The notes beneath the pieces are model-generated. The model made no database searches, was not told where the DNA came from, and saw only the letters and a program-made list of their open reading frames with translations. A DNA stretch of 64,000 bases from Promethearchaeia archaeon (GTDB lineage: Archaea; Asgardarchaeota; Lokiarchaeia; Sigyniarchaeales; SOKP01): NCBI GenBank assembly GCA_029856145.1, contig JAHQWK010000012.1:1-64000 (forward strand). The letters are read 5' to 3'. Positions 33,321-35,771 of this stretch are shown here, one piece after another. The position numbers and the translations under genes are program-made. Every line of letters starts with the position of its first letter. The stretch's first letter is position 1.

Positions 33321-34442
33321 TTATAGTAAATTTGGTGGTATTCCTTCATTATAATACTTCACCCGCGTAATCCAATTCTGAGAAAATTCTGGAATGGTAC
33401 CAAGTATAGAGCCACCCACCCACACAGAAAATGTTCTCTCCATCGGAGCGATAATTCTGATTCCTAGATTTTTTTTCTTTCTCCTTGCTAATTCTAATTC
33501 TAATTCTTGATAAATACGCGATTTTATATTAGGGAACATTGAGGATCCTCCTGAAAGAAAAATATTATTCAATAAATCTGGACGAATATCTAAATCACAT
33601 GCATCTATAACGTCCATAATGGCTACATGTAACGAATCTTCTTCCAACTCTGAAGATGGTTTAAATAATAATTCTGGTACCATAAATCGTTCTTTATTAA
33701 GTGAGATAGTTGAACCATCAGGCAAAGAGTATTCTTTCTCATATTGCTCAATACGTTTCAGATCTTCATTATAATCTAATGAGACAAAACAAGCTTTCTC
33801 CTTTAATGCCCTTACTAATTCTCTACGAATTGAAGAATCAACAGACCATCCAATGGATTCTAAAGTCTGTTCCATATAACGAGTTAATACTCTTCCACCT
33901 ATGTCTAAAATCCGTACTGCATGTTCTAACTTATATCCTTCATAGATCGGGACAATTCTTGTATTACTATCTCCAATCTCTACAATCAAACCTGTTTGAA
34001 ATCCTCCAGAGTAAAGAGTTAACATAGAATCTAAGACAGGATAAAATGCCATACATTGATATCGTTCTAAAAACAATTCAAAAATTTTCTCTAAATCTTT
34101 ATATGGAAATAAAGGATGTACCGCAAATAGTACATTAACAAGCGTTGGGTCTACTCTTAAGTTATAAAAGATATAATCAATAATATTTGCTAAATGGTTC
34201 CAATCTACGACAATTCCCTTTTCAATTGGATGAAAAATTTTATACAATCCAATTGATTGAATTTCGTCTCCTACATATATTTCATCTTCACGAGACTCTT
34301 TGCCCCCATAATTGACACCAACATCTTGATATTTAGGTTTTCCAACCATTGTAAGGAATACTTGGGAGGGTGTATCTTCACCCGCGAATCCAATTTTTGT
34401 TGAAAATTGACCGATATCAAGAACAACTGTAAGATTTCCCAT
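33321..34442 (-). CDS. Divergent actin-family (Arp-like) protein
   Basis: KIGFAGED.P, YVGDE, PIE.G...DW, VPIYEGY, GGR.LT, KEKACFV, YSLPDG, ERF..PE.LF.P, CDLDIR.DL..NI.LSGGSSMFP, SVWVGGSIL. Confidence 0.95.
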   Translation of the reverse strand: MGNLTVVLDIGQFSTKIGFAGEDTPSQVFLTMVGKPKYQDVGVNYGGKESREDEIYVGDEIQSIGLYKIFHPIEKGIVVDWNHLANIIDYIFYNLRVDPTLVNVLFAVHPLFPYKDLEKIFELFLERYQCMAFYPVLDSMLTLYSGGFQTGLIVEIGDSNTRIVPIYEGYKLEHAVRILDIGGRVLTRYMEQTLESIGWSVDSSIRRELVRALKEKACFVSLDYNEDLKRIEQYEKEYSLPDGSTISLNKERFMVPELLFKPSSELEEDSLHVAIMDVIDACDLDIRPDLLNNIFLSGGSSMFPNIKSRIYQELELELARRKKKNLGIRIIAPMERTFSVWVGGSILGTIPEFSQNWITRVKYYNEGIPPNLL

Positions 34443-34567
34443 GCCTTAATATTTCTAAATTTAATTGAAGATAATTACCCTAAATAACTATATCTAATAT
34501 ATTATTTTAATTATTTAAAAAAATTCTATGCAATTTATCAAAAAAAAGAAGAAAAATCTTAAGTTTC

Positions 34568-35233
34568 TTATTCTCCTCTCATGATTTTCTTCAGACGATT
34601 TAGCTCATCCAACATCTCATCTCGAAGAGAACCTAAGCCTCCACCAACTTTTGGAGCTACTGAGGGTGCTGCTGGAGCTGGAGGTCCAGGTCTTTTTGCA
34701 AATGCCGGTGCTGCTGGAGGTCCTGCACTTGGAGGGCCACTAGGTGCTTTAGGAGGTCCACCGCCAGCAGGAGGTAATTTCGGAGCTGGAGGTAAATTAG
34801 GTTTTTTGGGAGGTCCGCCACCACTTGGTGCAGTAGGTGGGCCTGCTTTCTTAGGAGGACCCGCACCGGGAGGTTTAGGTGCAGAAGGAGGTCCCCTGCC
34901 AGGAGGTGCAGGAGCTGCTGGGACGGTAGCTGTTGGTGCTGCTGTTGGTGCTGCGGCAGGACTTCCACTACTTAATAAAGAGAATAAGGTACTTGCTGCT
35001 GCGGTTTTAGCTTCACCACCTGTTGGGGCAACAATTTTTTTAGAGGAAGTACTCACAGTTTGAACATCTTCAACAACAGAAACTTCCTTCAAATCTTTCT
35101 GAGCTTTAGCCAATGATTTAATAAAGTCGTTTATTCCTTTTACAGTATCTCCTAAATCATCTGCTAAAGAAGTTAAACCTTTTTTCATAAAATTAATTAC
35201 TCGTTCAATCTTTTTCTGTTCTTTTGAAACCAT
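34568..35233 (-). CDS. Coiled-coil + proline-rich + C-terminal amphipathic helix (WH2/VASP-like) protein
   Basis: Heptad-like N-terminus, about 110-aa Pro/Gly/Ala tract, C-terminal GGGLGSLRDEMLDELNRLKKIMRGE; SD GAGGA. Confidence 0.8.
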   Translation of the reverse strand: MVSKEQKKIERVINFMKKGLTSLADDLGDTVKGINDFIKSLAKAQKDLKEVSVVEDVQTVSTSSKKIVAPTGGEAKTAAASTLFSLLSSGSPAAAPTAAPTATVPAAPAPPGRGPPSAPKPPGAGPPKKAGPPTAPSGGGPPKKPNLPPAPKLPPAGGGPPKAPSGPPSAGPPAAPAFAKRPGPPAPAAPSVAPKVGGGLGSLRDEMLDELNRLKKIMRGE

Positions 35234-35495: not shown

Positions 35496-35771
35496 TTGCA
35501 TAAAATGCCTAAGCGAGAACTATTCATTAAGCGGGTTTATGAAATAGTAAATGAGCTTAAAATTCCCCTAATCGATGAAAGAGTCTATGATAGTGTTAAA
35601 TTCAGTACGGGGGCAGCTGTAGCAGCGGTTATTTTCAGATTTGAGGAGGATGAATCAGTAATACGTGGATTTCTGGGTCTTGCTGAATACTTTCACACAG
35701 TAGTGATAAAGAGAAAGGATGAGTTCTATATTCCCCACGCTTCCATTCTCTTCAGACTTATAAGTGCTTAG
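35496..35771 (+). CDS. Small hypothetical protein
   Basis: Clean globular-looking ORF; likely start ATG 35505. Confidence 0.7.
   Translation: MHKMPKRELFIKRVYEIVNELKIPLIDERVYDSVKFSTGAAVAAVIFRFEEDESVIRGFLGLAEYFHTVVIKRKDEFYIPHASILFRLISA

Follow-up and report, generated by a model that had tools for sequence, protein, structure and literature searches.

MIM1-like tails of Asgard ESCRT-III proteins have been described together with their binding to MIT domains (PMC7240154), and PMC10936438 reports that ESCRT docking modules of Asgard archaea are fused, in a patchy distribution, to longin and other domains, and identifies no Asgard orthologues of Vps27 or of Bro1/Alix. For actin, three actin-related proteins (Arps) are listed for L. 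ossiferum, of which UYP44126.1 is one (PMC9834061), and a Lokiactin co-immunoprecipitation (co-IP) from this species shows, in its rows with log2 ratios from +10 to -1.06, gelsolins and a profilin to be enriched (bioRxiv 10.1101/2025.11.30.690169, Suppl. Table 2). Machinery for filament nucleation has so far not been found in Asgard archaea (PMC9433394). The proline-arm family described here is a candidate for this gap, or for the missing Vps27/Bro1/Alix role.

The window, that is, the whole stretch of 64,000 nucleotides that was analysed, comes from a Promethearchaeia archaeon (contig JAHQWK010000012.1), and the features discussed below are located in it as follows.

34568..35233, minus strand: proline-arm gene, 221 aa, soluble form (open reading frame; single copy in the genome)
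35084..35224, minus strand: N-terminal coiled-coil helix, aa 4-50, of the soluble form only (AlphaFold2 pLDDT ~90-97; heptad)
34970..35014, minus strand: short amphipathic helix, aa 74-88, containing STLFSLLS (AlphaFold2; class conservation)
34643..34963, minus strand: disordered Pro/Ala/Gly arm, aa 91-197 (36% proline; AlphaFold2)
34580..34636, minus strand: end helix, aa 200-218 (AlphaFold2; conservation across the phylum)
34540..34556, minus strand: T-rich tract, 12-28 nt past the stop codon of the 221-aa gene, a probable archaeal terminator
33321..34442, minus strand: gene of a divergent Arp, 373 aa (open reading frame and PF00022 match)
35505..35771, plus strand: unnamed 88-aa alpha/beta protein, divergently transcribed, the deepest conserved neighbour of the proline-arm gene

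A sequence-only reading of the window had described two co-oriented genes 125 bp apart, the second of them actin-family, and this is borne out by the open reading frames and by the full-length match of the Arp to PF00022 (E 1e-89). The AlphaFold2 model of the 221-aa protein, which was built on 37 homologues, contains three helices (residues 4-50, 74-88 and 200-218) with disorder between them. In the N-terminal helix, hydrophobic residues follow a clean heptad pattern between I9 and V51, the short amphipathic helix has two leucines, L83 and L87, that are kept across the class, and the arm carries the motif LPxxPx(L/K)P in 55 of 71 class sequences. The longest proline run is two residues in the 221-aa protein and four in nine of the 71 class members, and the runs of five or more that were sought with profilin in mind occur in none of the 71; runs of five to seven are found in some proline-arm proteins of other classes. 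The protein stops three residues past the end helix. The heptad helix, the STLFSLLS segment, the proline arm and the C-terminal helix that had been read from the letters are all recovered by the model, the heptad and the composition. A Pfam search with the 221-aa protein returned no match, and fold searches with the full model returned generic helices only (Z up to 5.6).

An orthologue of the N-terminal 90 residues, almost always single, was found in 132 of the 161 genomes of the class, and a profile of the last 34 residues matched 335 of 400 Asgard genomes, mostly once in each. The conservation is far beyond chance, and the C-terminal helix, whose conservation in homologues was in question, has 12 invariant columns among 30 class members. 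In the search beyond Asgard archaea, the 80 matches listed were labelled Asgard or archaeal, save for one record with a bacterial title. A Nanopelagicaceae-titled record with a Loki-type helix (locus L238) is probably a mislabelled Asgard bin. The literature search found no description of the family or of its accessions, and Atlas feature searches with the family returned only unnamed Asgard clusters. What emerges is a nameless protein that most Asgard archaea have retained, mostly in single copy, and whose docking helix hardly varies; for these reasons it probably belongs to core Asgard cell biology.

Full-length products of the family occur in two forms. The soluble form, which starts with the coiled coil, is found throughout the class of the window and in five further families. 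The membrane form has one or many transmembrane helices, followed by a hairpin domain and then by the same arm and end helix. Homology between the two head types was considered and is not supported (HHalign 5%). The accessions of cultured species are UYP44328.1 and UYP44135.1 in L. ossiferum and UJG39821.1, a membrane form, in Heimdallarchaeum aukensis. The L. ossiferum orthologue was placed at UYP44328.1 (NEF87_000613) through its two flanking accessions, and in the proteomics of this species it corresponds to GNAMCCOK_00620, the offset having been checked by molecular weights. The neighbourhood of the L. ossiferum orthologue also encodes, a few genes away, a probably secreted protein of 3420 aa that adjoins a small GTPase (locus L203, G016:C1:712448-722710). 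Across several classes, the membrane form is found in a conserved neighbourhood of its own (loci L140-L157), in which the neighbours are a gene that is ribose-5-phosphate isomerase-like by sequence and one for a PIN/ATPase/KH protein. P0025 (549 aa) contains the entire soluble protein, preceded by an N-terminal transmembrane helix and followed by a C-terminal TIR domain.

The gene of the 88-aa protein lies within a few kb of the proline-arm gene, mostly adjacent to it, in 24 of 61 loci, four of them outside the class. Every one of the 14 genomes that encode a full-length soluble form has it, and it was not found in any of the 18 whose full-length product is the membrane form, a comparison that comprises few independent lineage splits and in which a divergent homologue could be missed. 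Its sequence is very conserved, and the model has a confident fold (pLDDT 92) that found no clear match in the PDB (Foldseek E 0.3 or worse; best Z 4.0); similarity in the Atlas to parts of DUF5305 and UPF0182 proteins (TM 0.63-0.66) is a lead only. The 88-aa protein is a candidate partner of the coiled coil of the soluble form. In the upper part of the L. ossiferum proteome, the orthologue of the 88-aa protein (GNAMCCOK_00427) is abundant, with an average of 20.7 versus 21.7 for Lokiactin, and GNAMCCOK_00620 is missing, so that a simple 1:1 complex of the two proteins fits poorly.

The linkage of the proline-arm gene to the Arp differs among the three related Lokiarchaeia families (f1-f3) in which Arp orthologues were found. 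All 21 wide loci of f1 have the Arp on the strand of the proline-arm gene and no more than 6 kb away from it; in five of them the two genes are direct neighbours, and in the genus of the window they are adjacent in 18 of 29 loci. A PIG-L gene often separates them in f1, where the conserved syntenic block also includes a wHTH gene and topoisomerase I. Outside this family, f3 included, the distance between the two genes is 44-273 kb; in L. ossiferum, UYP44126.1 is separated from the proline-arm gene by 273 kb and from the 88-aa gene by 10 kb. A conserved linkage of the pair, which had been proposed as a check, is real within f1 and does not extend elsewhere. The T-tract follows the stop codon of the proline-arm gene in 39 of 51 f1 loci, as compared with 5% of the tightly coupled gene pairs of this genome and 44% of the pairs with gaps of 80-300 bp, which makes it likely that the 221-aa gene and the Arp are transcribed separately. 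A scan for sigma-70-type promoters was set aside, given that its model is unsuited to archaea.

The Arp is 42% identical to the Lokiactin of the same genome and is the orthologue of UYP44126.1 (50% identity, same clade, support 100). In a quick version of the actin tree, computed without eukaryotic sequences, it falls outside the Lokiactin clade and in a clade of its own (support 100), and the best 60 PDB sequences that it matches are all actins. Its nucleotide site is altered, in actin numbering, at Q137D, H161R and H73K, with DIGQF as P1 loop and EIGDS as P2 loop, and groove residues are altered as well. By analogy with the chemistry of actin, these three substitutions and the altered phosphate loops would make the Arp probably a poor ATPase. 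Orthologues of the Arp (at least 49% identity) were found only in f1-f3, while the best match in the other genomes tested, many of the genomes searched being incomplete and several closed, was 37-45% identical, the level of conserved actin or of other paralogues. Given that the end helix is pan-Asgard and the Arp orthologues are confined to f1-f3, the Arp is not what conserves the helix, and judging from these distributions the partner of the end helix is probably not the neighbouring Arp. A second actin-related clade of Lokiarchaeia, with proteins of ~490-560 aa that carry a C-terminal extension, comprises L003 (G000:C24:73917-74855), L083, L085-L087, L105 and L106; its P1 loop, D-I-G-x-A/G-x-x-K, presumably recalls that of eukaryotic Arp10/Arp11.

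These observations bear on the proposal that the pair is a nucleation module, in which an NPF- or VASP-like protein would be encoded with its own Arp. The shared strand in all the wide f1 loci, with direct adjacency in five, the adjacency in most loci of the genus of the window and the presence of the three genes within ~45-270 kb in f3 speak for such a module. Nonetheless, the pair is often split by PIG-L or other genes within a block that is syntenic as a whole, a terminator-like tract lies between the genes, WH2, central and acidic motifs are missing from the 221-aa protein, the Arp has no equivalents of Q137 and H161, and the end helix is unchanged in lineages where no Arp orthologues were found. 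The module is mostly unsupported by the range of the Arp, the T-tract and the missing WH2 and acidic motifs, and we consider it highly improbable. We read the 221-aa protein instead as having the layout of an adaptor with a partner other than the Arp, at a probability of roughly 85%.

The core of the end helix can be written L-R-x-E-M-L-x-E-L-x-R-L-K-x-hydrophobic. Among 40 diverse helices from across the phylum, L203, M207 and E210 are invariant and L208, L211, R213, L214 and K215 nearly so, and the hydrophobic face is formed by positions 200, 203, 207, 208, 211, 214, 217 and 218. The helix recurs, in one to three copies within disordered stretches, in Ras-like GTPase, Cys-motif, longin-like, LRV and TIR proteins, and reuse in varied proteins is the behaviour of portable docking peptides. 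In P0001, P0005, P0008, P0019, P0041 and P0042, one to three copies of the portable helix accompany a CPxC...CCxC motif and a Ras-like GTPase or longin-like domain, and a second, related helix (L-x-x-E-L-R-x-L-F) is often found downstream in these families. Docking, rather than oligomerisation, appears to be the function of the end helix. Were it a homo-oligomerisation helix, forming a four-helix bundle as in the VASP tetramer, the proteins that reuse it would co-assemble with the scaffold; the broad hydrophobic face flanked by conserved E and R would suit the higher-order coiled coils, and single proteins do carry tandem copies of the motif. Such a role is improbable, however, because the helix has only 19 residues and no VASP_tetra match, and its near-invariant charged positions across the phylum would fit a fixed partner better.

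The sequence-only reading had also likened the end helix to WH2 and to VASP_tetra, and profile searches matched neither. WH2 (PF02205) gave no match in the 221-aa protein, in 30 helix sequences (E up to 10) or, for this protein, in the genome-wide search, and the VASP_tetra profile (PF08776) did not detect the end helix. The further idea that helix and LKK form an actin-binding WH2 motif does not hold, given that the tetrapeptide is LKKI in only 9 of 40 helices (LKEI, LREI, IKEI, LKAL and LKSI being among the others), that LKK lies inside a continuous helix reaching residue 218 with a linker of two residues, where WH2 has ~4-5, and that the hydrophobic residues after LKK are conserved. An acidic tail with tryptophan, looked for as the mark of an NPF, is absent from the 221-aa protein, and neither this protein nor any of the 71 class sequences contains a tryptophan. 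No EVH1 domain was found, the N-terminus being a single long helix without a Pfam match. The short spacing, the PP-only runs and the missing acidic tryptophan motif had been entered as caveats from the outset, all correctly. The proposed order of oligomerising head, proline arm and helix stands, as that of a real and strongly conserved protein, and the identity as an NPF or VASP is not supported, with no WH2 or VASP_tetra match and no acidic or tryptophan motif. PDB searches with helix profiles returned generic coiled coils only and no match to arcadin-2. A match of one orthologue to CCDC53, a subunit of WASH, was below the cut-off (E 0.012) and was discarded as an effect of coiled coil and proline bias.

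The end helix could also bind the groove between subdomains 1 and 3 of Lokiactin, as the helix of arcadin-2 does on crenactin, and so tether or feed filaments at the membrane, with the link to the Arp being secondary; this is somewhat unlikely. Actin assembly adaptors are built in the same way, from a membrane anchor, a proline arm and a helix. The register L-x-D/E-E-M-x-x-x-L is one that we take to resemble those of the F-actin-binding helix of VASP and of the central helices of WASH. Both likenesses would agree with binding to Lokiactin, as would the linkage of the proline-arm gene to an actin homologue in f1. Crenactin in Pyrobaculum is controlled by a C-terminal helix (PMC5173319), and Lokiactin and the end helix are both pan-Asgard (PMC9834061). 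What weighs on the other side, besides the missing WH2 and VASP_tetra matches and an LKK that is variable and lies within the helix, is that the proline runs are mostly PP and that the profilins of Loki and Odin were reported not to bind the polyproline of VASP (PMC8410842). The co-IP rows with log2 ratios from +10 to -1.06 (bioRxiv 10.1101/2025.11.30.690169, Suppl. Table 2) do not contain GNAMCCOK_00620, nor do they contain the Arp, GNAMCCOK_00418, which is also absent from the upper proteome. Given that GNAMCCOK_00620 is likewise missing from that upper part, its absence from these co-IP rows may be a matter of non-detection and is weak evidence. It is unlikely that the family goes back to the last Asgard ancestor as a link from membrane to actin, made up of an anchor (a membrane anchor with an ESCRT-I-like hairpin, or the coiled coil together with the 88-aa protein), the proline-rich arm and an actin-groove helix that would be a forerunner or analogue of the helices of VASP and WASP, the whole being paired only later with a lineage-specific Arp.

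The comparison with ESCRT concerns both ends of the protein. The ending hydrophobic-x-x-E-L/I-x-x-L-K, preceded by a proline-containing linker, is found in 26 of 32 Asgard ESCRT-III tails, the MIM1 register is present in all 40 end helices, and the string ELNRLK is common to the end helix and to the Vps4-adjacent ESCRT-III of this genome. With a matrix of ESCRT tails, the 40 helices score a median of 7.7 bits, which is the 98th percentile of the tails of the genome and near the 99th of their own shuffles (8.2), versus a leave-one-out median of ~26 bits (range 8-33) for true ESCRT-III tails; in the reverse test, with the helix matrix, ESCRT tails reach at most 3.9 bits versus 52 for the helix. 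Residues L203, R204, L208, I217 and M218 are conserved in the end helix and absent from MIM1 tails. These data suggest a resemblance of the end helix to the MIM1 tails of ESCRT-III, without membership. MIT domains were found in 21 of 22 genomes tested, and within 8 kb of the proline-arm gene no ESCRT gene recurs as a neighbour. Genome G277 has two ESCRT-III genes at a distance of 10-15 kb from its proline-arm gene (G277:C1:2271544-2286894), with no general pattern.

At the other end, the hairpin of the membrane form aligns with ten Asgard steadiness boxes, chosen by PF09454 with only one above the cut-off, at an HHalign probability of 94% (E 1.3e-7, 52 columns), and the controls gave 5% and 0.5%. 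A helical hairpin with a G-x-I turn, as expected of a steadiness box, is present in membrane-form orthologues, and the soluble protein of the window shows no such hairpin (HHalign 0.5%). Direct Pfam matches of the membrane form to Vps23_core are weak and sub-threshold (E 0.07-0.2). Similar hairpins occur in other Asgard membrane proteins, and the best PDB match is a ribophorin-like domain (8whn, E 3e-4).

Taken together, the data suggest that the proline-arm protein is a disordered adaptor with a helical docking motif, belonging to an undescribed family. In such an adaptor, the head would act as anchor, either through one or more transmembrane helices and a hairpin like the ESCRT-I steadiness box, or as a soluble coiled coil with the 88-aa protein as its probable binding partner; the long proline-rich arm would give reach, and the end helix would dock in a groove of a partner that is conserved across the phylum. 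As to this partner, we tentatively propose ESCRT, with the end helix as an extended MIM1-like peptide for an MIT domain (of Vps4 or a paralogue) at sites of membrane remodelling, and place Lokiactin second. The evidence favours membrane remodelling by ESCRT a little more than actin nucleation. The helix may also dock on some other conserved protein, for example a Cdc48-type ATPase, a part of the proteasome or a protein of the tubulin family, which would agree with a motif that is a family of its own and that passes neither the MIM1 nor the WH2 test outright; no positive evidence was found for any such partner, and this is quite unlikely.

Set beside the closest known systems, the proline-arm protein shares with the MIM1 tails of Asgard ESCRT-III (PMC7240154) a terminal amphipathic helix in the hydrophobic-x-x-E-L-x-x-L-K register after a proline linker, including ELNRLK, but it has no ESCRT-III core, its helix has a longer and more hydrophobic face and scores 7.7 versus ~26 bits, and its gene is not in ESCRT clusters. 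The hairpin of the membrane form, at 94%, resembles Asgard steadiness-box proteins (PF09454; PMC10936438), whereas the soluble form of the window has no hairpin, and the accessible portion of PMC10936438 does not describe its combination with a proline arm and this helix. With WASP/WAVE/WASH (PF02205) and Ena/VASP (PF08776) it has in common the order of oligomerising head, proline-rich arm and terminal amphipathic helix; it differs from them in having no profile match, LKKT, long polyproline, acidic tryptophan tail or EVH1/WH1 domain. Arcadin-2 of Pyrobaculum (PMC5173319) likewise has an archaeal C-terminal helix that is functional and a gene near an actin homologue, but PDB searches gave no sequence match to it, and the proline-arm gene is linked to a divergent Arp in one family only. 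As for the L. ossiferum Arp UYP44126.1 (PMC9834061), the downstream gene of the window is its orthologue, whereas UYP44126.1 itself lies 273 kb from the proline-arm gene.
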